Assembly (NCBI GenBank): GCA_963828465.1
Contig: CAWHEU010000001.1
Coordinates: 1-43,502, forward strand
DNA: 43,502 nt
Source of the DNA: an uncultured Acidobacteriota bacterium
GTDB taxonomy: Bacteria > Actinomycetota > Acidimicrobiia > Spongiisociales > ZC4RG35
Direction of reading: 5' to 3'
Part shown: positions 5,026 through 26,738 of the stretch, in pieces
Position numbering within the stretch: the stretch's first letter is position 1
Layout of the letters: the number at the start of each line of letters is the position of its first letter
Notes under the pieces: model-generated
What the model was told of the DNA's origin: nothing
What the model saw: the letters and a program-made list of their open reading frames with translations, nothing else
Databases searched by the model: none
Position numbers and translations under genes: made by a program

Positions 5026-5049
5026 CGTTTCGATCGCAGAGTCCTCATA

Positions 5050-5083
5050 AGCAGATGCGCCGGGCAAGGCCGGCGCATCTGCT
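5050..5083 (-). terminator. Intra-operon stem-loop after the binding-protein gene (mRNA stabiliser or partial terminator)
   Basis: Perfect 14-bp inverted repeat AGCAGATGCGCCGG-N6-CCGGCGCATCTGCT; no U-tract. Confidence 0.7.
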
Positions 5084-5103
5084 CGTCTATGGCTAGTTGT
5101 TGG

Positions 5104-6303: not shown

Positions 6304-6410
6304 AAATGAACTCCTCCTAAGTGGTGCCCGAAGGCGTGCGGGAGTGTGTCATACGCAATAGCGGATGTCCACTCACCCGATGTGGCGAATCGTACCGATC
6401 GGCCCGGGTA

Positions 6411-6426
6411 TGGCAAACGTTCTCAT
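6411..6426. promoter_or_regulatory. Possible LacI-family operator
   Basis: TGGCAAACGTTCTCAT, a CG-centred imperfect palindrome in a divergent intergenic region. Confidence 0.35.
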
Positions 6427-6503
6427 CACCCCCGTACGTCCCGGCGAATCGCTTGGGGTCATTGCTTATCCTTCCCGCTCGGATTCGCGTCGAGTGGAGG
6501 TTC

Positions 6504-7658: not shown

Positions 7659-7668
7659 GGAGGAAGAC

Positions 7669-8583
7669 ATGAAGCTGGGACTGCTCACCGCACCATTTCC
7701 GGAGACGCCGCTCGACGAGGTCGTGGACTGGACCGTCGACAACGGGTTCACCACGATCGAGATCGCCTGCTGGCCGGCATCGAGTGGTGACACCCGCCGC
7801 TACGCGGGGACGAGTCATATCGATGTCGACGGCATCTCCGATGCCCGCGCCGGCGAGATCGCCGACAGCGTCACGGGGCGTGGTCTCGAGATCTCGGGCC
7901 TCGGCTACTACCCGAACCCGCTGAGCCCGGACGCCGAGCACCAGCGGATGGTGATCGACCACCTGAAGAAAGTGATCGTTGCCGCCGGCAAGATGAATGT
8001 CCCAGTCGTCAACACCTTCATCGGCGCCGATCACACCAAGACACAGGACGAGAACTGGGAAGACGCCACAAGGGTCTGGCCCGAGATCATCTCCTCGGCG
8101 GACGAGAACGGTGTCAGGATCGCAATCGAGAACTGCCCGATGATCTTCTCCAAGGACGAGTGGCCGTCGGGGCACAACCTGGCCTACAACCCCCGGATCT
8201 GGCGCCGGATGTTCGAGGAGTTCGGCGAGACGATCGGTCTCAACTTCGACCCGTCGCACCTGGTCTGGCTGATGATCGACATCGAGCAGGCCATCGAGGA
8301 ATTCGGCTCCCGCTTCTATCACTTCCAGGCCAAGGACGTGATGATCGACTACGGCGGTCTCTATGAGAACGGAAGCTTGTCATCTGGCATCGGATGGCAG
8401 GTTCCCCGGCTTCCCGGTCTCGGGCACGTCGATTGGGGTGTCGTCTTCTCGGCGCTCTACCGCGTCGGCTACGACGGCCCGATAATCATCGAGCACGAGG
8501 ATCGTGGGTTCGAGGCCACCGACGAGTTGGTGAAGCGGGGCTTCCTCCTGGCCAGGGACGTACTCAGCCCGTACGTCCACTGA
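7669..8583 (+). CDS. Sugar phosphate isomerase/epimerase-like TIM barrel (AP_endonuc_2/IolE-like)
   Basis: IAIENCP, LNFDPSH, QAKD, PGLGHVDW and IIEHED motifs; GAGGAGG RBS. Confidence 0.88.
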   Translation: MKLGLLTAPFPETPLDEVVDWTVDNGFTTIEIACWPASSGDTRRYAGTSHIDVDGISDARAGEIADSVTGRGLEISGLGYYPNPLSPDAEHQRMVIDHLKKVIVAAGKMNVPVVNTFIGADHTKTQDENWEDATRVWPEIISSADENGVRIAIENCPMIFSKDEWPSGHNLAYNPRIWRRMFEEFGETIGLNFDPSHLVWLMIDIEQAIEEFGSRFYHFQAKDVMIDYGGLYENGSLSSGIGWQVPRLPGLGHVDWGVVFSALYRVGYDGPIIIEHEDRGFEATDELVKRGFLLARDVLSPYVH

Positions 8584-8584
8584 C

Positions 8585-9781
8585 CTACTCGCTGGTGACC
8601 AGGTCGAAGATCTCGCCGGTCTCCTTGTTGGACAGCATGAGTTTCACCCGGCCGTCGGGAAGGATCTCTCGCTTGACGATCGAGTGGCCGTCGTGCGTGC
8701 CGGCCTTCTTCTCGATCCGGCCCGTGGTCCCGCCCCGCCACTCGATGTCGACCGGCTCCCACTGTCGTGATCGCGCCGAGCGATACGCCGCGTCCATGAC
8801 AGCGTTCACGATGTAGCCGTCATAGAAGGTCTCCCGTGGCTCGCGACCCTGGTCCATCGCGTCGAACATGTCGGTGAACATGTTGGCGTACCCGAACTCA
8901 CTGACCTCATCGCCAACAGCGAAGACCCACCCCTCGGTGGATTCGATCTTCTCCGCCACATAGCGGTCACCGCTGCCGGAGGTGTACATCTCGTATCCGG
9001 TCCGGAGGAAGTGATTGAGCCAGATCGTGCCCTCGGTGCCGGCGATCTCGTCTCGCAGGTCCAGCCCACCCCGAAAGGTCCAGGAGACCTCGAATTGGCC
9101 GAGGGCGCCCGATTCGAACCTGATCAGCGCGACCGCGTTGTCCTCTGCCTCGATTGGGTGGACCAGAGTGTCGCTCCATGCCATGACCTCCACGGGGCGG
9201 TTTCCCTTGCCCACGTACGTGCGGATGACCTCGATGCAGTGACACCCGAGATCGACGATCGCTCCGCCGCCTGCCTTCTCCTTGTCCCAGAACCAGGCGC
9301 TGTGAGGACCGGGGTGGGTCTCACGGGATCGGGCCCAGGTCACGTCGCCGATCCCTCCGGATTCGATCGTCTCGACGGCCTTCATGGCCTTCGGCGTATA
9401 ACAGAGGTCTTCGAGATAGCCGGCGAACACGCCGGCCGACTCCACCTTGTCCAGGATGCGCCGGGCCTCCTCGGCGTTGCGGGCGAGGGGCTTGGTGCAG
9501 AGCACAGCCTTTCCGGCGTCGGCCGCGGCAACGATGACCTCCTCGTGGAGGAAGTTGGGCAGGCCCACCACCACCGTGTCGGTCTCATCGTGGTTGATCG
9601 CCTCTTCGATGGAGGTCGTATAAGCGGGGATGTCCCAGCGATCGCTGAAGACCCGGGCCCGCTCGTCGGATTGTGAAAAGACGATGCCCACCCGGTCGCG
9701 GCTTCGCTGGCTGTGGAGCGTCATCGTGTAGAAGTCCCCGATGAGACCGGTGCCGAGCATTGCGACGTTGTGAGATTTCAT
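8585..9781 (-). CDS. Gfo/Idh/MocA family oxidoreductase
   Basis: LGTGLIG, LCTKPL (T in place of the usual E), [11 protein letters not shown]; GGAGG RBS upstream of ATG 9781. Confidence 0.9.
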
Positions 9782-9810
9782 TGGCCCTGGTCCTCCGGTT
9801 CGAATGTCTC

Positions 9811-9873
9811 TGCAACGTATCAGGGACTGCCGGAGCGAAATACAGTGCTTGAGTGGCTGTGCAATCGATGGCG
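9811..9873. promoter_or_regulatory. Two LacI-like operator candidates in the divergent promoter region
   Basis: TGCAACGTATCA (9811-9822) and TGCAATCGATGGCG (9860-9873), both CG-centred imperfect palindromes. Confidence 0.4.
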
Positions 9874-9902
9874 GCTCCGCCTCACGAGGAAAGGACAGGC
9901 TC

Positions 9903-11690
9903 ATGGGTGAAGACAGCAAGATCCTGAAGCAGTTCCTGGGCGACACCGACTTCCCGATCGATTGGGCCAGCGATGAGGAGAAGGGGCTGTTCTGGTTCTT
10001 CGACGACCTTCATTGCCCACAGCCACTGTCTCCCATGTACTTCGACATAGGGGGCTGGTGGCTGACCTGCGATCACATGTTCCGGAGGTTCGGCACACCC
10101 TTCGCCTCGGACTGGATCGCCAAGAACATCAACGGATACCTCTACACCGCCGCCATCCCCGCCAATCCGGGGACCACCGTGGAGGGGGTCGAGTTGGGCA
10201 ACCGGTACGCCCCGAGGACTCCCGTCGACGACCCCGCCTACCCGGAGCAGATCGGCGCCTATCTCAACGCAGTGCTTCCGACATACGGGGCTCATTTCGC
10301 CGACTGGTGGGCCAGCCGCCTCGTCCCCGAGATGATCAGGAACTTCGAGTACCTCGAGGAGAAGATCGAACGCTGGGAGGACATCCCCCTGATGGAATGG
10401 GCGACGATCCTCGAGGATGCCATCGACATCCACGACCGCCACTGGAAGATCCATTGGATGCTCAACTTCTCACAGCTGTCGGCCACGCTCGCCCTGCAGG
10501 CTGCTGTCGAGGAGCTGAAGGAGGGTGTCGATCCGACACTGCTCGGCCGGCTGCAGAACTCGGCGAGCGACCGGAACTGGGACTCGATCGAGGCGCTCTG
10601 GCGGATGAAGGGGGAGGTCAAGGAGGACCAGGAGCTTTCTGGGCTCTTCTCCCGTGAGACAGGTGTCGACATCCTCGCCGCGCTGAACGGAAGCGACAGG
10701 GGCAGGAGTTTTCTCGAAGAGAGGCTTCGGCCCTACCAGAAGGAGTTCGGCTGGCATGCCGTATGGAGTCACGAGTTCGTGTTCCCGACCCGCTACGAGA
10801 CACCTGAGCCGATCCTGGAGGTGATCAAGGGATATGTGGACACCGACTACGACTACCCGGCGGCCATTGGCGAGCTGAAGAAGGATCTCGAGGCGGCCAC
10901 CGATGAGCTGTTGGATGGGCTCGAGGGTGAGGCACTTGAGCGCATGAAGCAGGCACACGACACGAATGCCCGAATGGCCCCACTGACACCCGACCACCAC
11001 TTCTACATCGACCAGGGCACCAACGCCCATGTCCGTCTGGTCCTCATCTGCATCGGCCGTCACCTGGCGGCTCGAGGTGCCATTGGCGATCCCAACGACG
11101 TCATGTTCCTCAAGTACAACGAGCTCCGCTATCTGATGGCTGATCCGGAAGGCTCCGACGTCCGGGAGCTGATCTCCGACCGCCGGGATGAGCGGGAGGA
11201 CGCCTATGAGATTCGGCCTCGCGACTGGGTGGGGACTGCCACCGAAGCGGCACTGGCCTTCCCGTATCTGCCTCTCTGGGGATTTCCCGAGCGTCTCGAC
11301 CGGGACTATGCCGTGGCGGAAGATCGGGTCGAAGGGCTGGCCGCTTCAGCGGGTGTCATCGAAGGCGTGGCCAGGGTGGTGCTGAGCCCGGAGCAGTTCG
11401 ACGAGGTGAAAAAGGGGGAGATCCTGGTCTGCCAGATGACCAACCCGGCTTGGGTGACGTTGTTCACGAGGATCAGCGGGTTGGTCTCCGACGCCGGCGG
11501 AGCCGCCTCACATCCTGCAGTCCTGTCGCGGGAGTTCGGCATTCCGGCCGTGATCGGGACATCGGTGGCCACCCAGAAGATCAAGACCGGCGATCTGGTT
11601 CGGGTCAACGGCTCGACCGGCGTCGTCGAGATCCTCCCCGACGATTACGTTGCGCGGGAGGCACCGACATCCGATCTATTGACCTCATGA
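9903..11690 (+). CDS. PEP-utilising dikinase subunit: substrate-binding domain plus C-terminal phospho-His swivel domain (PpsA/CreH/Rph-C-like)
   Basis: C-terminal [29 protein letters not shown] and [24 protein letters not shown] (His537); N-terminal [12 protein letters not shown]. Confidence 0.85.
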
Positions 11691-12628
11691 GCGTGACCGA
11701 GGATGTCATCTGGCTGGATGACATCGAGTGCCACCGGGCGGAACTGGCCGGTGGCAAGGGTGCGAGTCTCGGCAGGATGACGGGTACCGGCATGCCGGTG
11801 CCACCCGGCTTCGTGGTTACGGCTGGCGCCTTGAGTGACTCTCTCGCCACTGGAGGCGTCTTGGAGAAAGTGAGAGATCTCGCCCGATCCTTCGAAGTGG
11901 GCGCCGAAGGAGGTCGCATCGCCGGTGAAATCCAGGCGATCGTGCTCAGCTCGCCGCCATCGGAGGAGTTGGCCGAGCACATCACGAGCGCCTATCAGAA
12001 CCTCGGGCCGGATGTCCCGGTTGCCGTCAGGTCGAGCGCTTGTGCCGAAGATGGCGAGTCGGCCAGTTTCGCCGGCCAGCAGGAGACGTATCTGAACGTG
12101 ATCGGCTCGGAGAATGTGCTCGAGGGAGTCGTTCGGTGCTGGGCATCGTTCTTCACGGAAAGAGCCCTCTTCTATCGGCGCAGCAAGGGGTCGCTCACCG
12201 ACCTCCAAATGGCCGTAGTGGTGCAACAACAGATCGCCGCAGACAAGTCAGGGGTCATCTTCACGACGGACCCCATCCGACAGCGCTCCGATCAAATGGT
12301 GATCGAGGCGGGGTACGGGCTGGGAGAGGCCCTGGTCTCCGGTCTGATCACACCTGACAACTACGTGGCTCGAAGGGACGGCAGGCTGAAGAGGGTCCGT
12401 CTCGGGCAACAAGATCAGATGACGGTCCGCGTGGACGATGGGGGGACGACGACCGTGCCCCTCGATGAGGAGATCGCCGGCTCTCAGGTCCTCGACGAGG
12501 ACGAGATCTCGCGCCTCGTGGAGGTAGGCCTCGAACTCGAAGCAGCCTTCGGGTCGCCGCAGGACATCGAGTGGGCGTTCGAGGCCGACCGGCTATACGT
12601 CCTTCAATCGCGTCCGATCACGACCTGA
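11687..12628 (+). CDS. Stand-alone ATP-grasp PEP/pyruvate-binding (PPDK_N) dikinase subunit (PpsB/CreI-like)
   Basis: AGGKGASL, VPPGFVV, AVRSSACAED, SFAGQQETYLN, GLGEALVSG, QDIEWA and LQSRPIT; ATGA overlap with the upstream gene. Confidence 0.9.
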   Translation: MSVTEDVIWLDDIECHRAELAGGKGASLGRMTGTGMPVPPGFVVTAGALSDSLATGGVLEKVRDLARSFEVGAEGGRIAGEIQAIVLSSPPSEELAEHITSAYQNLGPDVPVAVRSSACAEDGESASFAGQQETYLNVIGSENVLEGVVRCWASFFTERALFYRRSKGSLTDLQMAVVVQQQIAADKSGVIFTTDPIRQRSDQMVIEAGYGLGEALVSGLITPDNYVARRDGRLKRVRLGQQDQMTVRVDDGGTTTVPLDEEIAGSQVLDEDEISRLVEVGLELEAAFGSPQDIEWAFEADRLYVLQSRPITT

Positions 12629-12646
12629 CCGGAGTGTGACCATCAG

Positions 12647-13477
12647 GTGACTTGGTTCGAGTATCAGCGGCCCCAGAGCCTGGGCGAGGCATCCGATCTG
12701 CTTCGCAAGGATGATGCGGTTGCGCTGGCCGGAGGCACCGACCTGCTGGTGGCAGTTCGTCATCGGACGGTGCGCCCGGCCCTGGTGGTCGACCTGAAGT
12801 CGGTGACCGACATCGCTGACGGGATCGAGGTCGAACGTGACCGGCTCCGGATCGGGGGCCGCGTGGTGATGAACCGGCTGACCAGAAACGAACACGTGAA
12901 CAGGCATTTTCCGGCGCTGGCGCAGGCTGCTGCGGTCGTCGGTTCCGTGCAGATCCGCAACCGAGCGACCCTGGCCGGGAACCTCTGCAACGCCTCGCCT
13001 GCTGCGGACACTGCCCCGGCCCTTCTCGCCTATGGGGCAACCGTGATCGCATCCGGCCCCGATACAACCCGGTCGATCCCGGTCGAGGAGTTCTTCACCG
13101 GGCCGGGCACGACCGTCCTGGGGCGGGGGGAGATCGTCACAGCGGTCGAGATCCCGATTCGGGCCACGGCCGTGGGCTCGGCCTTCGCCCGGGTGACTCG
13201 CCGGCGCGGAGTCGATCTGGCGTCGGTGAGCCTCGCCTGCACTCTGGACTCTTCGGGGCGGACGCGCTTTGGGTTCGGAGCGGTCGGGCCGACTCCGCTC
13301 CTGGCTGAGTCGACGTTCGACGAGCTCGCCACCGACGAGGGATGGTCCCGGCTGCTGGCCGTCACCAGTCCCATCACCGATGTGCGTGCCGGTGCCGAAT
13401 ACCGGCGAGCCATGCTCCACGTGCACTCGAGAAGAGCCTTTCAGACAGCATCCGAACAGGTGAGGGCGGCGCAATGA
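12647..13477 (+). CDS. Xanthine-dehydrogenase-family FAD-binding subunit (CoxM-like)
   Basis: LAGGTDL, QIRNRATLAGNLCNASPAAD and DVRAGAEYR motifs. Confidence 0.92.
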   Translation: MTWFEYQRPQSLGEASDLLRKDDAVALAGGTDLLVAVRHRTVRPALVVDLKSVTDIADGIEVERDRLRIGGRVVMNRLTRNEHVNRHFPALAQAAAVVGSVQIRNRATLAGNLCNASPAADTAPALLAYGATVIASGPDTTRSIPVEEFFTGPGTTVLGRGEIVTAVEIPIRATAVGSAFARVTRRRGVDLASVSLACTLDSSGRTRFGFGAVGPTPLLAESTFDELATDEGWSRLLAVTSPITDVRAGAEYRRAMLHVHSRRAFQTASEQVRAAQ

Positions 13478-13953
13478 CCGCGATCGAGTCGGCGATCACA
13501 TTGACGGTGAATGGCTCCAGGAGAACGGTCAGCGTCAGCCCGTCCACGACGCTTCTCGAGATGGTCCGGACTCGACTCGAGCTGACCGGCTCCAAGGAGT
13601 GCTGTGCTGAAGGAGAGTGTGGAGCCTGCACCATGATCCTCGACGGCGAGCCGGTGAACTCCTGTCTGGTCCTGGCGGTCGAGACCGACGGGTCGGAGGT
13701 CACCACCATCGAGGGAATCGGCGCCGCCGGCATGACCCCGCTCCAGGAGAGCTTTCTCGCCACCGGCGCGATCCAATGCGGCTTCTGCATCCCCGGGATG
13801 GTCGTGGCCGCGACCGCCCTGTTGGAACGAATCCCCCGACCCACCGAGTCCGAGGTCCGGGAGGGGTTGTCGGGCAACCTTTGCCGTTGTGGCGGGTACT
13901 CGCGGATCTGCGCCGCGGTGATGGCCGTCGCCGGTGGGGACGGTGCGACATGA
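13474..13953 (+). CDS. Xanthine-dehydrogenase-family 2x[2Fe-2S] subunit (CoxS-like)
   Basis: CCAEGECGACT, QCGFCIPG and GNLCRCGGY motifs; ATGA overlap. Confidence 0.93.
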   Translation: MTAIESAITLTVNGSRRTVSVSPSTTLLEMVRTRLELTGSKECCAEGECGACTMILDGEPVNSCLVLAVETDGSEVTTIEGIGAAGMTPLQESFLATGAIQCGFCIPGMVVAATALLERIPRPTESEVREGLSGNLCRCGGYSRICAAVMAVAGGDGAT

Positions 13954-16206
13954 CCGAGCGCGGGCTTGGGGATCTCCGCCCCGAGGGTGGGCGGGTCTGA
14001 CCGGGTGACCGGCGCCCAGCGTTTCGCCGCCGACATCGCCATCGAGGACGTCCTGCACGTCGCCCTCGTCCATCTCGACTGTGGCCATGCCGCCATCGAG
14101 GAGATCGACACATCGAGGGCCGCCGGGATCGAAGGGGTCGTGCGGGTGTTCACCGCCGAGGACTTCCCCAACCCCGTGCCACGGTTCGGGCCACGTTTCG
14201 CCGACCGGCCTGTCATCGCGACAGATGAGACGAAGTACCACGGAGAGCCGCTGGCGGCCGTCGTAGCCGTCAGCAAGGAGGCGGCTGCGGAAGGCGCGTC
14301 GGCGGTCCGGGTGGAGTACAAGGAGCTCCCCGGCGTCTACTCGATCGACGACGCCCTCGATCCGAAGTCGCCACTGGTCCTGGACCCCCGGCTCCGCACC
14401 GCTGACGACCCATTGGCCGACAGCAACGTAAGACAGCGCTGGGACTGGGGCTGGGGCGACGTCGACTCGACCGAGGCCGAACTGGTGATCGACGAGTCAT
14501 ACACCTTCCCGATGGTCACTCACTTCTCGATCGAGCCCCACGCCTTCGCTGCGGCTCCGGAGGGTGGGGGAGTGACGGTATGGAGCTCGATCCAGCATCC
14601 CTATTTCCTGCAGGGGACGTTGGCGAGCCTGCTCGATCTCCCAATTTCAAAGGTACGGGTCCACGCACCGGACCCGGGCGGAGGGTTCGGGGGCAAGGGA
14701 TTCCCGAAATACGAGCCGCTGGTCGCCATGATCGCCCTCGAGTTGGGACGTCCGGTAAGACTCGTCCTCACACTCGAGGAGACGTTCCAGGCGGTCCGCC
14801 GCACCAATGCCCGCCTCCAGCTCCGCAGCGGTTTCGCTCGCGATGGCCGCCTCGTCTTCATCGATGCCATCGAGGACTTCATGATGGGCGCCTATGCCGA
14901 CATCGCCCCACGGGTGATCAGCAAGAGCAGCTACTTCGCCGCCGGGCCCTACAAGGTCGGGGCGGTGAGGGCCGTCGTTCGTGGCCTCATGTCGCACACG
15001 ACTCCGAGCACGGCGTTCCGTGGCTTCGGCGCCCCGCAAATGACGTGGGCCATCGAGTCGCAGATGGATGCCGCAGCCCGGGCCCTGACGATCGACCCGG
15101 TCGAGATCAGGCTCCTGAATCTGGCCGGGCCCGGGGAGGAGATCGTGCCCGGCGATCGACCCGCCGACGGGGACTGGCGCCAGGCTTTGAACATCGCCGC
15201 AGAGAGGGTGGGCTGGGGAGAGCCCTTGCTGCCGGGTCATGGCCGCGGAATCTCCGTTGGATTGAAGGCGTCTGCCACTGCCGGAGCGTCGTATTGCATC
15301 CTGCGCATCCTCCATGACGGGAGCGTCTCGCTGATCGCCGGCACGTCGGACATGGGTCAGGGGGCCCGGACCATCCTCACCCAACTGGTGTCCGAGAATC
15401 TCGGGGTGCCCATGGAACGGGTGAGCCTCGTGATGGGCGACACCGCAGTTGTCCCATTCGACTACTCGACCTCGGCGAGCCGGTCGACCGTGTTCATGGG
15501 GAGCGCCGTGGTCGACGCCTGCCAAAAGGCGATTGCGGATCTGAGGGCCAAGGCGGCCGAACAACACAAGGTGTCGGTCGAGGATGTCGTCTTCACCCCC
15601 GGCCACGTGTCCGTCGATGGGGCCGTCTACACGCTCGCCGAGGTATTGAGCGATGTGTTTGGCGCGGTCCCCGGTGAGATCATCGTCACTGGCTCACAGA
15701 GGGGTGAGGGGGACGCCGATCACCCGCTGGGCGGCCCGGCCTCGTTCTACGAGGTGTCCTGCACGGCGTCCGAGGTGTCGGTCGACCTCGAGACCGGTGA
15801 TTTCGAACTGGTCAAGCACATCACAGTCGCCGACGTGGGAAAAGCCATCAATCCCCAGCACGTGGAGATGCAGGACGAGGGTGCTGCCGTGATGGGTCTC
15901 GGTCATACGCTCATGGAGCATTTGATCCTCGACGAGCACGGGCGGATCGTGAACCTGGGTGCGCTCGACTACCGCATCCCCACCTTCAAGGACATGCCGT
16001 CCACCTTGGAGTCGGTGCTGGTCGAGAATGGAGACGGCCCCGGGCCTGGTGGAGCAAAGGGGAGCGGGGAAGGGGGTCTACTGGCTACATCGCCTGCCAT
16101 TGCGGCCGCCCTGACTCAGGCGACTGGAGTGGTGATCAAGGACCTGCCGCTGACTCCGGAACGGGTGTGGCAGGCGATGCACGGCGGAGACGAAGGGCGT
16201 GAGTAG
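13950..16206 (+). CDS. Xanthine-dehydrogenase-family molybdopterin-binding subunit (true start probably ATG 13950 with a 1-bp insertion; in-frame TTG at 13966)
   Basis: GGGFGGK, TAFRGFGAPQ, SDMGQG, TSASRST and GAKGSGEGG motifs. Confidence 0.9.
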
Positions 16207-16985
16207 TGATTGAGATGTTCGACCTCAGCGGACGGGTTGCGATCATCCCTGGCGGGGGAGGCGCCATCGGATCGGCGCTGGCGAAGGGCCTGGCCGGTGC
16301 CGGAGCCGCCATCGCCGTGGTGGGACGATCGAAGGAGCGTGCCGATCGGGCCGCGGCCGAGATCACCGGATCCGGTGGGCGGGCTGTGGCGATCTCGGCC
16401 GACGCCACCGACCCCGAAGGCGCCCAGAGGGCCATCGACCAGACAATGGCCGAGTTCGGGAGGGTCGACATCATCATCAATGCCATCGGCGGCGGCGCCG
16501 GGGACGTGTTGCATGATGCCCAGGAGTATCCAGGCGACGACTGGGACTGGATCATGGAGCTCAACGTCCGGAGCACGCTCCTGCCGACCCAAGCCGCGGT
16601 CCGCCAGATGGTGGAGCAGGGCGATGGTGGGCGCGTCATCAACATCTCCTCGGTTCGCGGGCAGTTGGGCATCAACGCCGGCTACTCGGCCTATGTCGCC
16701 GCCAAGGGGGCAATCGACTCGCTCACCAGGCAATGGGCAACCGAATGGGCCAAGCATGGGATCACCGTCAACGCCATCTCTCCCACCTTCGTCGATACGC
16801 CCCAGGTGGCGTCTCTTCTCGGCGACCCGGAGTTCAAGGCGAGGATCGTGTCGCGGATCCCTCTCGGGCGGATTGGGACCACGGACGATCTGTTGGGTGC
16901 CGTCCTCCTGTTCTGCAGCGGGGCCTCGTCCTTCATCACCGGTCAGATACTCACCATCGATGGCGGGCTCACCGCCACCCAGTGA
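16206..16985 (+). CDS. Short-chain dehydrogenase/reductase (classical SDR)
   Basis: PGGGGAIG, INISS, YVAAK, VNAISP and ITGQILTIDGG motifs. Confidence 0.92.
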   Translation: MIEMFDLSGRVAIIPGGGGAIGSALAKGLAGAGAAIAVVGRSKERADRAAAEITGSGGRAVAISADATDPEGAQRAIDQTMAEFGRVDIIINAIGGGAGDVLHDAQEYPGDDWDWIMELNVRSTLLPTQAAVRQMVEQGDGGRVINISSVRGQLGINAGYSAYVAAKGAIDSLTRQWATEWAKHGITVNAISPTFVDTPQVASLLGDPEFKARIVSRIPLGRIGTTDDLLGAVLLFCSGASSFITGQILTIDGGLTATQ

Positions 16986-17006
16986 TCCTCGAAGAGGGAG
17001 TCGATC

Positions 17007-17864
17007 ATGGAGCAAGCCACCGAGAACGTCTTCGTCGAGACCGGCCTCCGAGGCTGTAACCCGGGGTACGTCGTCACTAGCGACGGGGTGGTGGTGGTCG
17101 ATACGCCTCAGCTGCCCACCAAGGCTGTCGAGATGCGTCGCCAGGCCGAGACTCATGGTGAGATTCGCTATCTGATCAACACCGAGCACCACGTCGACCA
17201 CATCTTTGGCAACTACTACTTCAAGGGCTCCGGGACGGTCGTCAACCACCGTGGCCTGTACGAGAACTTCATGGTCGTGACCCCCGACCTCGATCCTTTC
17301 GCCTACGCGGCGGAGGCGATCCCGACGGACGATCTGGAGGGTGAGGCGATATTCCCGGATCGCCATGAGTACTACGCCGATCCGAACAAGGGCACCATCG
17401 TCTTCGACGGGAATCTGACGCTGCGGGTTGGCGACCACACGTTCGAGTTGATCCACACCCCGGGGCACACTCCGGGGCAGTTGGCTGTCTATGTGCCGGA
17501 GGAAAGAGTGGTGTTCACCGGGGACACCATCTTCAGCGAATGCCAGACATGGCTCATGACCTCCGACATCGACCAATGGCTCGAAGCCCTGGAGACGATC
17601 AGGCAGTTGGACGTGAAGTACATCCTTCCCGGACATGGCCCCGTGACCACCAAGAGCTATCTCGACACACAGCGATCGAACCTCCTCGACTGGAAGTCTG
17701 CGGTGGCAGCGGCCGTCGCCAAGGGATGGACACGCGAAGAAACCGTCGAGCGGGTCAACTTCGCCGACCGATACCCGGTCGATATCGGCCAGGGCTACAT
17801 GATGGACCACATCCAGACACTCAACGCGGGGTCGTTGTACGACAAGATGACCGGCCAGGCCTAG
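17007..17864 (+). CDS. Metallo-beta-lactamase-fold hydrolase (cyclase-like)
   Basis: VVVDT, NTEHHVDH, TPGHT, FTGDT and LPGHG motifs. Confidence 0.88.
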   Translation: MEQATENVFVETGLRGCNPGYVVTSDGVVVVDTPQLPTKAVEMRRQAETHGEIRYLINTEHHVDHIFGNYYFKGSGTVVNHRGLYENFMVVTPDLDPFAYAAEAIPTDDLEGEAIFPDRHEYYADPNKGTIVFDGNLTLRVGDHTFELIHTPGHTPGQLAVYVPEERVVFTGDTIFSECQTWLMTSDIDQWLEALETIRQLDVKYILPGHGPVTTKSYLDTQRSNLLDWKSAVAAAVAKGWTREETVERVNFADRYPVDIGQGYMMDHIQTLNAGSLYDKMTGQA

Positions 17865-17874
17865 TGACCCACTA

Positions 17875-18531
17875 GTGCGGCTCTACCTCCTACGACACGG
17901 CGAAATCACGTCCCATCGTGGCGATGTGCCGATCACGGCCGCAGCCGAGGAGCAGGCGTTCTCGGTGGGACGGGGCTTTGGTCTCCGTGAGCCGGGCCCG
18001 ATCACCGTGCTGAGCGGGGAGACACGCAGGGCGATTGACACTGCGACCCACCTTGCGCGTGGTGTCATCGATGCGGGTGGCGACGTGATCGGGCCGGAGG
18101 TTGCATTCGCGCTTCGCAACCCCGATCTCTACGTGGCGGGGGTGAGAGTCAACATGGTGAGCAGCGCCGATGCTCTAGCCGAACAGGTGGAGGGACTCTC
18201 TGCCGAGGATGTGGCGTCGCTCGGGTTCTTCCCGACTTTCTTCGACTCGCCTGACCGCATCGGGTGGTGGCTGGCCCACGCTTCACCTCCAGGGGAGGAC
18301 GCCAGGTCGGTCGCTGCCCGCGTGGAGTCCTTTGCCGGGAGCCTCGTCGATCCGATACCCGACAGGCTCGAAGTCGTCGTCGCCGTGACCCATTCGCCTT
18401 TGCTCCGAGCCGTCGCCAGTCACTCCCTGGGACATGACATCGGCGAGCCCCCCTGGGTGTCGGGTCTGCTGATGGTGGTCGACGACGACCGCAACACGAC
18501 GGTCGAGGTGTTCGACCCTGGTGCGGGATGA
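17875..18531 (+). CDS. Histidine phosphatase (phosphoglycerate-mutase-like) family protein
   Basis: LYLLRHGE, RRAIDTA and VAVTHSP motifs. Confidence 0.8.
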   Translation: MRLYLLRHGEITSHRGDVPITAAAEEQAFSVGRGFGLREPGPITVLSGETRRAIDTATHLARGVIDAGGDVIGPEVAFALRNPDLYVAGVRVNMVSSADALAEQVEGLSAEDVASLGFFPTFFDSPDRIGWWLAHASPPGEDARSVAARVESFAGSLVDPIPDRLEVVVAVTHSPLLRAVASHSLGHDIGEPPWVSGLLMVVDDDRNTTVEVFDPGAG

Positions 18532-19466
18532 GCTTCGAAGTCATCTGCATGGGCAGGCTGGGGATCGACCTCTACCCGTTGCAGTCCGGCGTTCGCCTGG
18601 GATCGGTCACCAGCTTCGGGAGATTTCTCGGAGGGAGTGCCGCCAATGTTGCGGTGGCGGCAGCACGGCATGGTCGGCGCACGGCTCTGATCTCGAGGAC
18701 CGGCGCCGACGACTTCGGCCGGTTCCTCAGCGAAGAGCTCGAGCGGCTTGGGGTGAGCAGTGAGTTCGTATCGAGGGTCGAGGGACTCCCGACACCCATC
18801 ACCTTCTGTGAGATCCATCCGCCCGACCACTTCCCGATCACTTTCTATCGGTATCCCAAAGCGCCCGACATGGAGATTCGACCCGAGGACCTCGATGAGG
18901 AGAGCGTTGGTGGTGCCCGATTGTTCTGGATCACGACCACCGGCCTCTCCCAGGAGCCCAGTCGTTCCGCCCACCACGAGGCACTCCGGATGAGGGTTGG
19001 TGCCGGCCTCACAGTCCTCGACCTCGACTATCGAGAGCAGTTCTGGAGCGATGTAGGAGACGCCAGAGAAGAGATCGCTGCAGTCCTACCGCACGTGGAC
19101 ATCGTCGTGGGAAATCTTGTCGAGTGTGAGGTGGCCGTCGGTGAAACCGACCCGCATCGAGCCGGCAAAGCCCTCCTCGAGCGAGGACCTACGACCGCCG
19201 TCGTCAAGCTTGGCCCGGAGGGAGTGCTGGGCTTCGAGCCGAAGGGCCAGGTCTCGGTGCCCCCGGTCGAAGTCGAGGTGGTGAACGGCTTGGGAGCTGG
19301 AGACGCATTCGGTGGAGCTCTGTGCCATGGAGTCTTGGAGGGTTGGCCCCTGCAAAGAGCGCTGGAGTTCGCCAACACCGCCGGTGCGATCGTCGCATCG
19401 CGATTGGAATGCTCGACGGCAATGCCGGACACTGAGGAAGTAATGGCCCTTCTGCCGCGGAGGTGA
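18528..19466 (+). CDS. iolC: 5-dehydro-2-deoxygluconokinase (PfkB family)
   Basis: MGRLGIDLYP, FLGGSAANVAVAAAR, FCEIHPPDHFP, LDLDYR and NGLGAGDAFGG motifs. Confidence 0.85.
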   Translation: MSFEVICMGRLGIDLYPLQSGVRLGSVTSFGRFLGGSAANVAVAAARHGRRTALISRTGADDFGRFLSEELERLGVSSEFVSRVEGLPTPITFCEIHPPDHFPITFYRYPKAPDMEIRPEDLDEESVGGARLFWITTTGLSQEPSRSAHHEALRMRVGAGLTVLDLDYREQFWSDVGDAREEIAAVLPHVDIVVGNLVECEVAVGETDPHRAGKALLERGPTTAVVKLGPEGVLGFEPKGQVSVPPVEVEVVNGLGAGDAFGGALCHGVLEGWPLQRALEFANTAGAIVASRLECSTAMPDTEEVMALLPRR

Positions 19467-20338
19467 GCGTGAATCTCGACATCGAACAGATCAGGGCCCT
19501 GCGCGTCGAGGATCCTGGTGCGATCGAACGCGCTGCGGCCGCGCGGTCCCGCCGTGCTCTGACCGGGCGGATGGTCTTGATTGCCGCCGACCATCCGGCT
19601 CGGGGAGCGCTCGCCGCTCGGGGCAGACCGCAGGCGATGGCCAATCGTCAGGACCTTTTGGAGCGGCTTGTCACGGCACTCGAGCGCCCTGGCGTCGATG
19701 GCGTCCTGGGGACTCCTGACATCGTCGAGGATCTGCTGCTGCTCGGTGCCCTGGAAGACAAGATCGTCATCGGGTCGATGAATCGAGGCGGTCTGGCGGG
19801 ATCCGTGTTCGAGCTCGATGATCGATACACCGCCTACGACGCACGAACGGTGGCCGAGATGGGTCTCGATGGGGGGAAGATGCTCATCAGAATCGCCCTC
19901 GAGGATCCGGGAACGGCGCGGACCCTGGAGCACACGGCGCGGGCCGTCTCCGAGCTTGCCTCGTCAGGGCTGATGGCATTGGTCGAGCCCTTCATGTCCA
20001 ATTGGGAAGACGGGAAGCTGGTCAACGACCTTTCAGCCGATGCCGTGATCAAGTCAGTGGGGATTGCGTCCGGTCTCGGGTCGACGAGCAGTCATACGTG
20101 GCTGAAGGTACCGGTGGTCGATGACATGGAGAGGGTCATGGAGTCCACGACGATGCCGACACTGTTGCTGGGCGGAGACCCGCAGGGGTCCGACGAAGAG
20201 GTCTTCGCCAGCTGGGAGAGGGCCCTCGGGCTACCCGGGGTGCGGGGACTCGTGGTCGGTCGGGCTCTCCTCTACCCCCAGAACGACGACGTCGCTGCGG
20301 CCGTGGACGTCGCGACCGGTCTCGTCGCCAGGGCCTGA
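19463..20338 (+). CDS. Class I TIM-barrel aldolase of actinobacterial iol clusters (Cgl0159/DeoC-FbaB-like)
   Basis: IAADHPARG, GSMNRGGL, DGGKML, TWLKVP, LLLGGDP and GLVVGR motifs; GTGA overlap with iolC. Confidence 0.8.
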   Translation: MSVNLDIEQIRALRVEDPGAIERAAAARSRRALTGRMVLIAADHPARGALAARGRPQAMANRQDLLERLVTALERPGVDGVLGTPDIVEDLLLLGALEDKIVIGSMNRGGLAGSVFELDDRYTAYDARTVAEMGLDGGKMLIRIALEDPGTARTLEHTARAVSELASSGLMALVEPFMSNWEDGKLVNDLSADAVIKSVGIASGLGSTSSHTWLKVPVVDDMERVMESTTMPTLLLGGDPQGSDEEVFASWERALGLPGVRGLVVGRALLYPQNDDVAAAVDVATGLVARA

Positions 20339-20355
20339 ATCGGGTTTTCAGCCGA

Positions 20356-20838
20356 TCAGTCCAGGAAGTTGTTGTCGTGAGCCAGGAAGAAGTCGGCCCG
20401 CTCGTCTGGTGACATCTCGTTCAGATGGTTGAGGCCTTCGAAGTACTGCTCGCGCGGCGCGCCGGGGGCGAAGTGGATGAGCATCGAGGCAGGCGCGCCA
20501 GACTCGTTGCTGAAGCCGTGGATCCCGCCGGGTGGGACGTGGGCGAAGTCGCCGACGCCGGCATCAACCCATTCCTCGCCGTCATAGATCCGCACCGTGC
20601 CGGTGAGGATGTAGAAGGACTCGGCCATCGTTCGGTGGAAGTGGGGATCCGCCCCGCCCCGGCCCGGGCCCATCGACCATCGATAGAGCCCGAACAGGCC
20701 ACCAGTCGTGGCACCGGTGGCGAGGTATTGCACCTCGGTCCCGCTCGTGCGGACCAGGTCCGGCTCACCGCCGGCCCTCGTGATCGTTGCGGTGACGGCA
20801 GCGCCCGATGCTGTATAGAGGGGGTCTGGATAGGTCAT
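20356..20838 (-). CDS. Cupin domain protein
   Basis: PHFHRTMAESFYILTG and HVPPGGIHGF cupin motifs. Confidence 0.88.
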   Translation of the reverse strand: MTYPDPLYTASGAAVTATITRAGGEPDLVRTSGTEVQYLATGATTGGLFGLYRWSMGPGRGGADPHFHRTMAESFYILTGTVRIYDGEEWVDAGVGDFAHVPPGGIHGFSNESGAPASMLIHFAPGAPREQYFEGLNHLNEMSPDERADFFLAHDNNFLD

Positions 20839-20885
20839 GGGTTTGACGTTCGCTACGTTACGCGTGACTTGAAAAAGGAGAACGG

Positions 20886-21917
20886 ATGACCGCGGAGTCT
20901 CCGACCCTGGCCGATCAAGTCAGCAAGCTCTATGACCTGATCGCCGGGTACCACGCCACCCACATGATCGAAATCGGGCACAAGCTCGGTGCATGGGCCG
21001 CCCTCACCGAGGATCCCGGTCTCACCTCCGCCGAACTCGCTGCCCGCCTTGCCACCGACGACTTCTACACCGATGTCATGTGTCGCACCGCCTTCGCCTT
21101 CGAGATCGTCGATCGTGACGGGGCCGGCTGGCGAATGGGGCCGCATTTCGAGCAGATCCTCGGAGATCCAGAATCGAGCTTCTATCTGGCTTCCGCCGCC
21201 GGGGTTCACATGGAAGTCGGAAAGGACTACCCGGACTACTTGCGTCATTTCCGGGATGGCACAGTCCGTCCGTACCAGGAACACGATGAGGCCTTCATGC
21301 GTGAGGTCGCCGAGGCACTCAAGGCACTGCCGCGCATCTTCCTCGATCTGGTGCTGCCCCAACTTCCGGTTTTGGAGCAGCGTCTCGAGGACGGTGCCAG
21401 GGTGCTGGACGTGGGCTGCGGTGGGGGATGGGCGGTGGTGCAGATCGCCGAGCGCTTTTCGGGCGTTACTTGTCTCGGCGTCGATGTCGAGCCCTATTCG
21501 GTCGGGCTTGCGCAGCAGCTCATCTCCGATCGAGGTCTCGCCAAGCGCTGCGAAGCGCGTTTGATCAGCGTCGACCAAATAGGTGAGGCAGGCACATTCG
21601 ACATCGCGACCAGCTTCCTGGTCGTCCACGAGATCGCTCCGCCGCTGAAACCAGGAGCCTTCGCCGCGGTGGCGAGGGCCCTCAAGCCGGGCGGCTACTT
21701 CCTCATCTTCGACGAGGTCTACCCGGTCTCCGACGATGCACTTCGCACCATGCCTACGCGCTTTGCAGCGCTGGCCCAGTGGTACGAGTTGACCTGGGGA
21801 AACGTTGTCGATACCCGCGCCGGTCTCGAAGAGCTATGCAATCATGCGGGTCTCCAGGTGATCGACGAGACGGGCTTCTCCCGGTTCCACATCGTGGTCG
21901 CAGAGAAGCCCGAATAG
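20886..21917 (+). CDS. Class I SAM-dependent methyltransferase with N-terminal wHTH (Rv2258c-like)
   Basis: VLDVGCGGG, FLVVHE and ALKPGG motifs; AAGGAG RBS. Confidence 0.88.
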   Translation: MTAESPTLADQVSKLYDLIAGYHATHMIEIGHKLGAWAALTEDPGLTSAELAARLATDDFYTDVMCRTAFAFEIVDRDGAGWRMGPHFEQILGDPESSFYLASAAGVHMEVGKDYPDYLRHFRDGTVRPYQEHDEAFMREVAEALKALPRIFLDLVLPQLPVLEQRLEDGARVLDVGCGGGWAVVQIAERFSGVTCLGVDVEPYSVGLAQQLISDRGLAKRCEARLISVDQIGEAGTFDIATSFLVVHEIAPPLKPGAFAAVARALKPGGYFLIFDEVYPVSDDALRTMPTRFAALAQWYELTWGNVVDTRAGLEELCNHAGLQVIDETGFSRFHIVVAEKPE

Positions 21918-21931
21918 TCGACCGCCGTGGA

Positions 21932-22246
21932 TCACATGTCGAGAGTCTCGGCGACCTCGATCGTCCCGCCCGACGGCAGTTGCGGCGAGCCCTTGGCGAA
22001 GACCAGGGCCTGCTCGAGGCTGTCTGCGCTGATGATCGAATAGCCGGTCACCGGGTTGGCGCCGCCGCCCTGCGTGGTCGACCCATCAGTCGCGACGGTG
22101 GCCGATGCCCCGGTCGGGTGCCCTTGATCGACGACCGCCGTGCCCAGACCCTCGAGCCATTCATTCCACGCCTGCATCACGGCCGCCCCCTCCTCTTCCG
22201 ACTCCGGGGCACTTCCGCCGTGATAGACGAACAAGAACTTGGCCAT
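21932..22246 (-). CDS. YciI/DGPF-like small protein
   Basis: MAKFLFVYHGG, WNEWL, VTGYSII and GGTIEV pattern; AAGGAG RBS. Confidence 0.75.
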   Translation of the reverse strand: MAKFLFVYHGGSAPESEEEGAAVMQAWNEWLEGLGTAVVDQGHPTGASATVATDGSTTQGGGANPVTGYSIISADSLEQALVFAKGSPQLPSGGTIEVAETLDM

Positions 22247-22378
22247 TGCATCTCCTTTTCGCACGGCCACCTTGTGTGGCCTGTCCACCTAGAGACGAAC
22301 GAGGCTGACGCTTTTCGACAGCCGATGTCCAGGCAATTTCGTCGTAGTGGCCGGGCGATAACTACCGTCCCGTCGCCG

Positions 22379-22996
22379 ATGAAGTTCAGGATCGTCCCCA
22401 CCAGTCGGGAATTCTTCGACGATTTCTCCTTGGCAGCGCAGAACATCGCCACCTGTGTGGACAAACTCAACGATGTCCTCGCCGACACAGCCCATGCGGC
22501 GGAGCTCCACGTTGCCGTCAAGGAGGTCGAGCGGGCCGGTGACGAGTACACCTCGCGCATTCTCACCAGACTCGACTCGACGTTTGTCACCCCGTTCGAT
22601 CCTGAGGACATCCAGCGGTTGGCGCAGGGGATCGACGACGTGGTCGACGACATCTACCACGTGTCTGAGATGGTGGTGCTCACCAACATCACCAAACTGA
22701 TCCCCGAGGTTCCGGAACAGGTGGAAGTGCTCACGCAGATGGCCTCGAAGATTGTCGAGCTCTTCGACCGTTTCGAGGATATGAGAGGCCTCCGTCAGAT
22801 CATCAGCGAGATAGAAGGTCTGGAGACCGAGGGAAATCGCATCTACCGAAGAGCTGTAGCCCGACTCTTCTCCGGGGAGATGGAACCGGTCGATGTCATC
22901 CGCTGGAAGGACATCGTCGAGTCGCTCGAGGCAGTGCTGGACCGAATCGAGGACATGACGAACATCGTCACCACGATCGTCGTCAAGCAGGCCTGA
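22379..22996 (+). CDS. DUF47 phosphate transport regulator (PhoU-like)
   Basis: EVERAGD, LDSTFVTPFDPED, IDDVVD and VIRWKDI motifs; directly upstream of a Pit gene. Confidence 0.88.
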   Translation: MKFRIVPTSREFFDDFSLAAQNIATCVDKLNDVLADTAHAAELHVAVKEVERAGDEYTSRILTRLDSTFVTPFDPEDIQRLAQGIDDVVDDIYHVSEMVVLTNITKLIPEVPEQVEVLTQMASKIVELFDRFEDMRGLRQIISEIEGLETEGNRIYRRAVARLFSGEMEPVDVIRWKDIVESLEAVLDRIEDMTNIVTTIVVKQA

Positions 22997-23009
22997 GGGA
23001 GCATCGATC

Positions 23010-26722: not shown

Positions 26723-26738
26723 CGGTCTCCGATTCTAA

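Follow-up and report, generated by a model that had tools for sequence, protein, structure and literature searches.

A predicted split dikinase linked to a molybdenum hydroxylase in a conserved gene cluster, with a candidate sugar-related catabolic role

What might a bacterium degrade with an operon that joins a split dikinase, a molybdenum (Mo) hydroxylase, and enzymes of sugar-acid metabolism? The question is raised by a 43.5 kb stretch of DNA, here called the window, that forms the start of contig C1 in a metagenome-assembled genome (MAG; 3.07 Mb in 29 contigs, 92% complete, 4.8% contaminated) whose close relatives bear depositor labels such as Acidimicrobiia. At 9903-20338 the window holds ten co-oriented plus-strand genes, g01-g10, identified from translated open reading frames (ORFs), Pfam, and NCBIfam. 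An earlier note on this DNA had described these ten genes and their domains, joined by 1-4-bp overlaps or gaps of at most 21 bp, and had placed beside them a sugar ABC importer, two Gfo/Idh/MocA enzymes, a TIM barrel, and an amidase; the translations, Pfam, and NCBIfam bear out the first part of this description and Pfam the second. We favor, by a little over even odds, the reading that the genes belong to one catabolic locus, made up of a widespread core (g01-g07) and lineage-specific feeder and drain modules, whose substrate would be a hydroxylated ring compound derived from, or linked to, carbohydrate.

The first two genes would encode the dikinase. The 595-aa product of g01 (9903-11690) is the predicted acceptor-binding and phosphohistidine (swivel) subunit, with a PEP-utilizers domain (PF00391) at residues 503-573 (81 bits), and g02 (11687-12628) encodes a stand-alone ATP-grasp subunit of 313 aa (PPDK_N, 291 bits). 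The three subunits of the Mo hydroxylase follow: the CoxM-type FAD subunit g03 (12647-13477; FAD_binding_5 and CO_deh_flav_C), the CoxS-type subunit g04 with two [2Fe-2S] clusters (13474-13953; Fer2 and Fer2_2), and the CoxL-type molybdopterin subunit g05 (13966-16206; Ald_Xan_dh_C and MoCoBD_1/2). Behind them lie a short-chain dehydrogenase/reductase (SDR), g06 (16206-16985), which Pfam, NCBIfam, and PDB sequence searches place with the gluconate-5-dehydrogenase/KduD type, and a hydrolase of the metallo-beta-lactamase (MBL) fold, g07 (17007-17864; Lactamase_B). The operon closes with a branch 1 histidine phosphatase, g08 (17875-18531; His_Phos_1), a PfkB kinase resembling IolC-type 5-dehydro-2-deoxygluconokinase, g09 (18528-19466; PfkB, and TIGR04382 at 361 bits against a cut-off of 300), and a (beta/alpha)8 protein of the Cgl0159 family that is presumed to be an aldolase, g10 (19463-20338; PF22649, 426 bits). 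From g01 to g10 the junctions are, in order, a 4-bp overlap, an 18-bp gap, a 4-bp overlap, a 12-bp gap, a 1-bp overlap, gaps of 21 and 10 bp, and two 4-bp overlaps. The starts of g01, g02, and g04 sit within longer ORFs and were chosen by the 595-aa length of most listed homologues, by Pfam coverage, and by a GAAAGGA motif, which lies 8-14 nt ahead of the g01 start at 9903. Direct reading of the translations finds the catalytic signatures intact: Ser-His537 in g01, AGGTDL in g03, both 2Fe-2S Cys motifs in g04, GGGFGGKG and GAKGSGEGG (with the C-terminal GEGG glutamate) in g05, RHG and the second His in g08, and GAGDAF in g09. These motifs and the domain identities, like the conserved linkage described below, are observed directly.

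The case for a dikinase rests on both subunits. In our local copy of Pfam, the N-terminal 470 residues of g01 have no match; a listing of its homologues enters the family under PF00391 together with PF27448. NCBIfam models for PRK08296 (a "hypothetical protein"), PigC/RedH, and rifampin phosphotransferase (RPH) match residues ~211-578, all far under their cut-offs, and in a PDB sequence search residues 378-578 match RPH. An AlphaFold2 model built with 20 homologues is of moderate quality (mean predicted local distance difference test score 63), confident over residues 130-430 and unreliable over 1-127; when it was submitted to Foldseek, the top six matches were all Listeria RPH (RPH-Lm), aligned over 458-471 columns at 21-22% identity with E values of 1e-13 to 2e-10. 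H537 is invariant in alignments of 5 and of 20 sequences, and S536 is invariant in the former and at least 90% conserved in the latter. The partner g02 matches the isolated ATP-grasp domain of RPH from end to end (E 7e-60). Phosphoenolpyruvate (PEP)-utilizing proteins on Rhodococcus plasmids share 25-27% identity with g01 over 93-96% of its length. One of these, on pRB98 (25% identity over 94% of the length, residues 17-578), belongs to a Cre-type cluster with a P450, an ATP-grasp protein, the swivel protein, an SDR, a ferredoxin, a reductase, an HD phosphohydrolase, and an aldehyde dehydrogenase.

As far as the accessible part of the source goes (PMC12167813), PpsAB, CreHI, and HpeHI are two-component dikinases in which both subunits are required; the beta-phosphate of ATP travels to a phenolic hydroxyl on a His that follows a Ser or Cys, the characterized split enzymes all phosphorylate small phenols, and HpeH and HpeI formed no stable complex. 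The window pair has the same build, namely an acceptor-plus-swivel subunit of ~600 aa beside an ATP-grasp subunit of 310-390 aa, with the Ser-His phosphocarrier motif and an RPH-like fold. It differs in that g01 is only ~25% identical to the Cre-type protein, as against the ~45% given in that part of the source for HpeH, CreH, and PpsA among themselves (PMC12167813), and in that the follow-up enzyme is a Mo hydroxylase instead of a P450, a carboxylase, or a biotin enzyme. A Ser-His swivel domain, an RPH-like N-terminal acceptor domain, and an adjacent but separate ATP-grasp subunit are all present, and by these sequence-level marks g01/g02 is a distant branch of the split dikinases of the PpsA/CreH/HpeH kind, for which conversion of ATP to AMP and Pi with phosphorylation of a phenolic acceptor is the predicted activity. 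The split PEP-synthase-like pair that the earlier note had proposed is thus upheld by NCBIfam, by the RPH sequence and structure matches, and by the Cre-type alignment. Its statement that a HAD phosphatase acts in the Cre pathway was not: the pRB98 cluster carries an HD-domain protein, and CreD is named a "phosphohydrolase" in the portion of the literature at hand.

What would the dikinase serve? The closest solved relative of g05 in the PDB is the alpha subunit of 4-hydroxybenzoyl-CoA reductase (4-HBCR; E 4.8e-81), and g03 contains only two Cys, hence no 4Fe-4S insert. We rejected 4-HBCR itself, given alpha and beta scores of 399 and 114 bits against cut-offs of 995 and 405 and the absence of the insert from g03. 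Because the Cys-rich insert is absent and the scores fall far below the equivalog cut-offs, we read g05 as the catalytic subunit of an ordinary hydroxylase. Form I aerobic CO dehydrogenase (CoxLMS) was rejected as well: AYRCSFR, which we take to be the active-site loop of its large subunit, is absent from g05, and the CO dehydrogenase models score under those for xanthine dehydrogenase (XDH) and 4-HBCR. The subunits g03-g05 are therefore predicted to form a Mo/FAD/2Fe-2S hydroxylase of the XDH family.

The pairing of such a kinase with a Mo hydroxylase has one genetic precedent, the 3-hydroxypyridine (3hpd) cluster of Ensifer adhaerens HP1. According to the accessible part of a preprint (bioRxiv 10.1101/2020.01.08.898148), HpdA1-4, a four-subunit 3-hydroxypyridine dehydrogenase, requires co-expression of orf9 ("pyruvate-phosphate dikinase") and orf10 ("PEP-utilizing protein mobile subunit") for activity in a heterologous host, and a knock-out of either abolishes growth; the SRPBCC subunit HpdA3 is separate and essential. 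Our literature searches returned no description of the window's gene set and nothing that joins phenylphosphate synthase with the XDH family in a gene cluster; among the results on PEP-utilizing proteins or dikinases in catabolism by Mo hydroxylases only this preprint was relevant, and no follow-up on its mechanism appeared among the papers listed. The claim that no described pathway has this gene set therefore holds for the set as a whole and fails for the kinase/Mo pairing, which the available text of the preprint establishes genetically for 3-hydroxypyridine. New in the window are the classical stand-alone ATP-grasp partner, a rare phosphatase, a link to sugar import, and an exit through IolC and an aldolase that is independent of IolB and IolD.

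Could the window simply hold an orthologue of the 3hpd system, in which kinase and Mo enzyme would make 2,5-dihydroxypyridine (2,5-DHP) and the amidase and other hydrolases would finish ring breakdown along the maleamate route? We regard this as quite improbable. The unusual trio of a PEP-utilizing swivel protein, an ATP-binding partner (pyruvate-phosphate dikinase (PPDK)-like in the 3hpd cluster), and an adjoining XDH-family Mo hydroxylase is shared, the two kinase genes being required there, and the 3hpd cluster, as far as its accessible description goes, has a GntR regulator and an ABC transporter, as do relatives of the window locus; an amidase lies nearby, and relatives carry a formamidase-like hydrolase of the cyclase family. 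The partner in the window is nevertheless a classical 313-aa ATP-grasp protein and not PPDK-like, and a sugar importer, SDR/MBL, IolC, and the aldolase are attached, so that this reading leaves the sugar-acid enzymes unexplained. Scans of ~40 window ORFs of at least 100 aa against Pfam gave no SRPBCC/CoxG match for the fourth subunit (essential according to the seen part of the preprint), and among the same ORFs there was no NicX-type 2,5-DHP dioxygenase, deformylase, or maleate isomerase, the only amidase being of the amidase-signature type. The likeness is one of gene kinds. No Ensifer record appeared among the best 60 of 92 plasmid matches of g01, nor among the best 40 of 84 for the PPDK-like partner found in relatives (see below), which were mostly true PPDKs.

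Is the arrangement in the window conserved? A scan with one genome per species returned at least 497 relatives of g01, and the best 80 loci (60-97% identity) were compared by tblastn with the window proteins at a coverage of at least 0.5. These 80 are all from MAGs, labeled mostly as Chloroflexota-type or Acidimicrobiia/Actinomycetota, with a few Dormibacterota, Proteobacteria, and Gemmatimonadota. CoxM was found in 67 of them, CoxS in 63, CoxL in 59, SDR in 35, and MBL in 29. In the 38 loci flanked by no less than 7 kb on either side, termed fully flanked, all three Mo subunits are present without exception; an SDR of at least 55% identity is found in 21, an MBL in 22, and both in 19. Outside the window's genus, g06 identities in related loci are 60-84% and g07 identities 65-89%, the SDR usually being adjacent. 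Since the linkage recurs in other phyla, the gene arrangement reflects more than chance. Within the same order, full-length g01 orthologues (at least 69% identity) are patchy: 7 of 25 genomes in the window's genus and 4 of 16 in other genera have one, in a tally of 41 genomes that takes in three flagged as unpublished (G018, G027, and G038).

De novo clustering of the neighbors (Pfam/NCBIfam) gave the usual order in other lineages, which is transaldolase, the g01 orthologue (G01), a GntR/FCD regulator, a 300-aa protein we call U301, CoxM-S-L, a cyclase-family hydrolase, a zinc-type alcohol dehydrogenase, and PPS721, a 720-aa truncated PPDK-like protein. Also near the core are SDR-MBL, a split transketolase, an aldehyde dehydrogenase, 2-keto-3-deoxy-6-phosphogluconate (KDPG) aldolase, and a transporter of the branched-chain-type ABC or major facilitator superfamily (MFS) kind. 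Sugar-acid and sugar-phosphate enzymes recur beside it: among the fully flanked loci, 20 of 38 have a transaldolase and 12 a split transketolase, and 9 of the 80 have KDPG aldolase.

U301 has no Pfam or NCBIfam match (for example, L042:6716-7621), and PPS721 passes NF004531 with 498 bits against a cut-off of 456 (for example, L048:7704-9866). An ATP-grasp protein of the g02 type (at least 50% identity) occurs in 8 of the 80 loci, all of them lacking U301 and PPS721. It is absent from 33 fully flanked loci; 32 of these carry U301 or PPS721 and 21 carry both, L078 being the exception. Because the two are mutually exclusive, the g02-type protein and PPS721/U301 look like alternative phosphate donors for G01. 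A related cluster of the g02 type is found in a cultured organism, Thermomicrobium roseum DSM 5159, on the megaplasmid NC_011961.1 (L102, 45264-74952), with identities to the window of 51% for g01, 48% for g02, and 36% for CoxL. This cluster also encodes a branched-chain-type ABC system, a Tm-1-like/PEP-hydrolase-like pair, GntR, cyclase, FAH, and ABM proteins, and the FAD, Mo, and 2Fe-2S subunits. T. roseum is a possible experimental model for the kinase/Mo cluster.

The strictness of this coupling bears on the view that the dikinase acts off the pathway, modifying or activating the Mo enzyme or its cofactor, or serving as a regulatory phosphotransfer device. No other enzyme accompanies the dikinase as strictly as the Mo subunits do (38 of 38), the ATP module of most relatives is an odd one (the truncated PPDK-like protein together with the unannotated 300-aa protein), and the 3-hydroxypyridine study saw no phosphorylated intermediate, as far as the available text of the preprint tells. 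Yet the N-terminal domain of g01 corresponds to the small-molecule-binding domain of RPH/HpeH-type kinases, and small phenols are the acceptors of every characterized split member in the consulted portions of that literature. We consider an off-pathway role very improbable, the least likely of the alternatives weighed here, and continue with a kinase acting on the substrate.

The SDR and MBL proteins were also compared with vitamin B6 catabolism, a reading in which the SDR would be pyridoxal 4-dehydrogenase, the MBL 4-pyridoxolactonase, and the kinase/Mo pair active on a 3-hydroxypyridine vitamer. It was rejected on sequence. Presumably solved structures exist for both enzymes, and none of the 59 PDB sequences matching g07 (E up to 0.001) is named pyridoxolactonase, while g06 has gluconate-5-dehydrogenase, KduD, and FabG types as the best 60 of its 140 PDB matches, with no pyridoxal dehydrogenase among their names. 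The single plasmid relative of the MBL protein, at 38% identity, lies in an unassigned GntR/FAH/MFS/aldehyde dehydrogenase cluster of Rhodococcus, which suggests no name for its function.

The last three genes of the operon have a narrower distribution. Phosphatase, IolC, and Cgl0159 aldolase are restricted to a few Actinomycetota, where they lie beside the kinase/Mo module, and are lineage-specific additions outside the widespread core. Of 201 genomes sampled from the class, 2 have a g08 orthologue (E up to 1e-20), and wherever it was found, in five of the 80 loci and in the class genome G041, it lies beside the kinase/Mo module, in arrangements that vary: after MBL and before IolC-Cgl0159 (the window, L023, L026, and L027); after MBL, followed by an SDR and KDPG aldolase in place of IolC/Cgl0159 (L028); or in a divergent Cgl0159-IolC-phosphatase unit facing PPS721/G01 (L043 and G041). 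Among the 80 loci, 16 have phosphatase-like genes, which belong to three unrelated folds (His_Phos_1 in 5, PHP in 10, and low-molecular-weight protein tyrosine phosphatase in 3); so do 13 of the 38 that are fully flanked. This is consistent with a phosphorylated intermediate and far from universal. The earlier note had named conserved linkage across genera of the kinase with the Mo subunits, the MBL protein, and the phosphatase as a test of a single pathway. For the Mo subunits such linkage is fully confirmed, for MBL in part (22 of 38), and the phosphatase proves rare but constant in its company.

What do g09 and g10 consume? In the lower myo-inositol pathway, to which both point, g09 passes the IolC equivalog-domain model, being the only protein in the window's genome that passes TIGR04382, and g10 belongs to the Corynebacterium glutamicum Cgl0159 family, matching PDB entry 3fok, "uncharacterized protein Cgl0159", with E 1.7e-106. 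In C. glutamicum, Cgl0159 presumably adjoins iolC in the iol cluster; our searches returned no description of its function, and the PDB entry names it uncharacterized. The rest of the classical pathway is different here. The window's genome, which is 92% complete, gave no match to IolB, and its best scores were 238 bits for IolD (cut-off 715) and 33 bits for IolE (cut-off 290), with control genomes responding as expected. Of the classical markers IolC, IolD, IolB, and IolE, only IolC was found in the genome. Among five other genomes with the phosphatase-IolC-Cgl0159 trio, none had IolB and none had IolD over the cut-off, again with responding controls. Since IolB and IolD were not found in any of these six genomes, g09/g10 is not the tail of a classical iol operon; its substrate must then be made in another way, most simply by the co-encoded enzymes. 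The suggestion that IolC and the aldolase consume a keto-deoxy acid thus stands in so far as classical inositol catabolism is set aside, and consumption itself is plausible: g09/g10 plausibly acts on a keto-deoxy acid made by the locus, with a six-carbon keto-deoxy acid as the intermediate. The KduD/gluconate-5-dehydrogenase-like SDR and the KDPG aldolase that takes the place of IolC/Cgl0159 in L028 fit this picture.

The feeder genes lie upstream. On the minus strand, at 1446-6303, Pfam identifies a CUT2-type sugar ABC importer with two BPD_transp_2 permeases (1446-2441 and 2438-3442), a double ABC ATPase (3439-5067), and a Peripla_BP_4 binding protein (5104-6303) that has weak matches to ribose- and galactofuranose-type binding proteins and whose orthologues (62-71% identity) are linked to the core in the Chloroflexota loci L058, L075, L077, and L083. 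Next come a first Gfo/Idh/MocA enzyme on the plus strand (6321-7658), whose true start is probably later because its Pfam domain begins at residue 67, a xylose-isomerase-like TIM barrel (7669-8583, plus), and a second Gfo/Idh/MocA enzyme (8585-9781, minus), divergent from g01 across a 121-bp spacer; all three were assigned by Pfam. A short and imperfect intergenic palindrome was noted at 9861-9872. The best NCBIfam match of the first Gfo/Idh/MocA enzyme is levoglucosan dehydrogenase (164 bits, cut-off 650), followed by IolG (116 bits, cut-off 355); the second scores 126 bits against IolG, and the TIM barrel scores 33 bits against IolE and weakly matches the 2-hydroxy-3-keto-glucal hydratase 8ro4 in the PDB (E 1.2e-4). 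In the locus L077, labeled Chloroflexia, G01, GntR, SDR, MBL, Gfo, TIM, binding protein, ATPase, and permeases are co-oriented, with the Mo subunits divergent; SDR-MBL lies beside CUT2 permeases in L030, L075, and L083, and in L058 the TIM barrel and importer are upstream of G01. The tie between the importer/Gfo/TIM module and the core therefore extends to a second phylum and to different gene orders, though in only 6-9 of the 80 loci.

These genes bring the inositol question back in another form. In a variant myo- or scyllo-inositol pathway, the Gfo enzymes would act as IolG and the TIM barrel as IolE, and the kinase, Mo enzyme, SDR, and MBL would replace IolD and IolB, taking the diketone to 5-dehydro-2-deoxygluconate. 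That IolC passes its cut-off while IolB and IolD were found in none of the six genomes suits such a route, as do the appearance of IolG among the best matches of the Gfo enzymes and the zinc-type alcohol dehydrogenase of relatives, which is closest to IolM (219 bits, cut-off 450). But the IolG scores of 116-126 and the IolE score of 33 bits are far below 355 and 290, the core is mostly found without Gfo, TIM, or IolC genes, and no known chemistry requires a Mo hydroxylase on inosose. We consider the variant improbable.

The levoglucosan dehydrogenase match of the first Gfo enzyme and the hydratase match of the TIM barrel hint at C3 oxidation and elimination on a glycoside or anhydrosugar. Oxidative 3-keto-sugar pathways, namely the levoglucosan LgdA/B and 3-keto-glycoside lyase/hydratase routes, likewise set a Gfo/Idh/MocA enzyme, a xylose-isomerase-like TIM barrel, a second Gfo/Idh/MocA enzyme, and a sugar ABC importer side by side. 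They differ in that the scores here lie far under the family cut-offs, so that membership is unsupported and the likeness is a lead for the feeder module only. It does open a reading with two substrates, in which a conjugate such as a glycoside would be split by Gfo/TIM/Gfo through C3 oxidation and elimination, the core would act on the aglycone, a hydroxylated N-heterocycle or phenol, and IolC and the aldolase would act on the sugar part alone. Besides the levoglucosan (C3) dehydrogenase and hydratase matches, this reading draws on the Mo subunit, which is nearest to enzymes acting on aromatics, and on the transport genes of the core loci, most of which have no sugar importer and carry branched-chain-type ABC or MFS transporters. 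Against it stand the distance of both matches from their families (164 versus 650 bits, and an E value of 1.2e-4), the recurrence of transaldolase, transketolase, and KDPG aldolase beside cores without Gfo/TIM, and the fact that an ordinary hexose part would have no need of IolC. On balance we think the two-substrate reading rather unlikely, though it is the strongest of the rival explanations.

For the single catabolic locus that we favor, a sequence of steps can be proposed. The CUT2 importer, the two Gfo/Idh/MocA enzymes, and the TIM barrel would deliver and pre-process the compound. The ATP-grasp subunit g02 would load the beta-phosphate of ATP onto His537 of g01, whose RPH-like N-terminal domain would hand it to an enol- or phenol-type hydroxyl of a small molecule; g03-g05 would then hydroxylate or oxidize the same activated skeleton, with water as the oxygen source. 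The SDR g06 would oxidize or reduce the product and the MBL protein g07 would open it hydrolytically. A phosphate would be taken off by g08, and the opened six-carbon keto-deoxy acid would be phosphorylated by g09 and cleaved to C3 units by g10. By analogy with the 3hpd cluster and CreHI/HpeHI, the kinase most likely acts on a small molecule and the steps most likely run in this order; the substrate class is likewise inferred. An exit through an IolC-type kinase and an aldolase without IolB or IolD narrows the product to a six-carbon keto-deoxy acid, and with it the substrate to a carbohydrate-like compound. The operon probably degrades a sugar-like ring compound, with a heterocycle, a cyclitol derivative, or a glycoside as candidates.

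Several observations weigh against this reading. The close relatives of g01 are all MAGs. Work on the 3-hydroxypyridine system turned up no phosphorylated intermediate, and its authors did not settle what orf9/orf10 do, as far as the accessible preprint text goes (bioRxiv 10.1101/2020.01.08.898148). IolC/Cgl0159 occurs in only 4 and CUT2/Gfo/TIM in only 6-9 of the 80 loci, most of which carry a branched-chain-type ABC or MFS transporter; with the sugar modules in the minority, the sugar link may belong only to some derivative of the compound that the core acts on. No phosphatase accompanies the core in 25 of the 38 fully flanked loci, so that dephosphorylation within the cluster is not general. 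The 80 loci come from related species, and some duplicate loci of the order genomes, so that the counts describe conservation and not independent events. Finally, a scan of 8500-21000 for promoters and terminators was uninformative (0 promoters against 1.6 in shuffled sequences, and 2 weak terminators against 4.5), and the single transcript of g01-g10 is a prediction from gene layout.

Public sequencing runs were searched for the stretch. Part of it is contained in 20 of the 24 runs listed, and none contains half of its words. Two RNA-library runs from one study cover all 30 bins with contigs that are mostly 90-95% alike and so come from relatives rather than from this strain; they were counted neither for nor against transcription. 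Some of these contigs span the g02/g03, g06/g07, and Gfo1/TIM junctions, which proves neither transcription nor a single transcript.

The assembly itself calls for some care. Window positions 20-12016 are repeated, in reverse, at the start of contig C25 (1-12000) of the same assembly, at 99.2% identity with 88 mismatches and 11 gap positions, and the C25 copy of g01 is broken into four frame pieces. The repeat is probably strain redundancy combined with indel errors in the MAG and not a biological duplication. The amidase (PF01425; 34-1427, plus strand) is split in the window into two frames, 34-1029 and 783-1424, and is a single open frame both in the C25 copy and in the L030 orthologue; the split is probably an assembly indel. 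Its orthologues, at 64-77% identity, lie beside the cluster in L023, L028, and L030. The genome's best match to a methylmalonate/malonate-semialdehyde dehydrogenase (mmsA-like), at C4:46687-48121, is likewise in two adjacent pieces (model positions 1-217 and 218-477), likely a further assembly frameshift. Through contig C25 (L105, C25:11000-29000) a LacI-family regulator can be seen just past the left end of the window, at ~1220-2232 of L105 and divergent from the amidase. Most relatives have a GntR/FCD regulator within the cluster; the window locus has no GntR gene, and the LacI protein may regulate it. After the LacI gene, C25 continues with an SDR, a CoA transferase, an enoyl-CoA hydratase, a luciferase-like oxygenase, a shikimate-dehydrogenase-like protein, an alanine racemase, a DUF993 protein, and an aldehyde dehydrogenase.

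Downstream of the operon are a cupin gene (20356-20838, minus strand) and then a methyltransferase gene (20886-21917). A PhoU_div (DUF47) protein and a PHO4 phosphate transporter (21779-24002) begin ~1.5 kb 3' of the operon, with no link to it seen in relatives. Farther along are a TetR regulator adjoining two tandem genes for zinc-type alcohol dehydrogenase/quinone reductase (26012-28806), a co-oriented row at 31878-37875 of a response regulator, a histidine kinase, and a trypsin-like protease, followed by a MoxR AAA ATPase, a DUF58 protein, and a VWA/BatA-type protein, and an FAD enzyme resembling D-arabinono-1,4-lactone oxidase (37903-39132).

A bolder version of the proposal can be stated, which we offer as speculative and rate as unlikely in its full form, if a shade less so than the two-substrate reading. 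In this version the route would be new to science and widespread in soil Acidimicrobiia and Chloroflexota: phosphorylation of an enolic or phenolic hydroxyl would let the Mo hydroxylase attack the ring, the SDR and MBL proteins would open it to a keto-deoxy hexonate, and in this lineage the exit would be by IolC and the Cgl0159 aldolase. A hydroxypyrone, a hydroxypyridone, a cyclitol-derived enediol, or a glycoside of one of these would be candidate substrates. If true, it would provide an entry into the lower inositol pathway that is independent of IolD and IolB, and would give phosphorylation its first assigned role in the chemistry of Mo hydroxylases. At least 497 species-level genomes carry the kinase/Mo-hydroxylase core, from soil phyla that are abundant and for the most part uncultured, and the window offers two handles on it, a classical two-subunit dikinase that can be assayed and a defined pathway exit. 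With this locus solved, a large family annotated as "PEP-utilizing enzymes" would gain a function, and a new activation mechanism for molybdenum hydroxylases could come to light.

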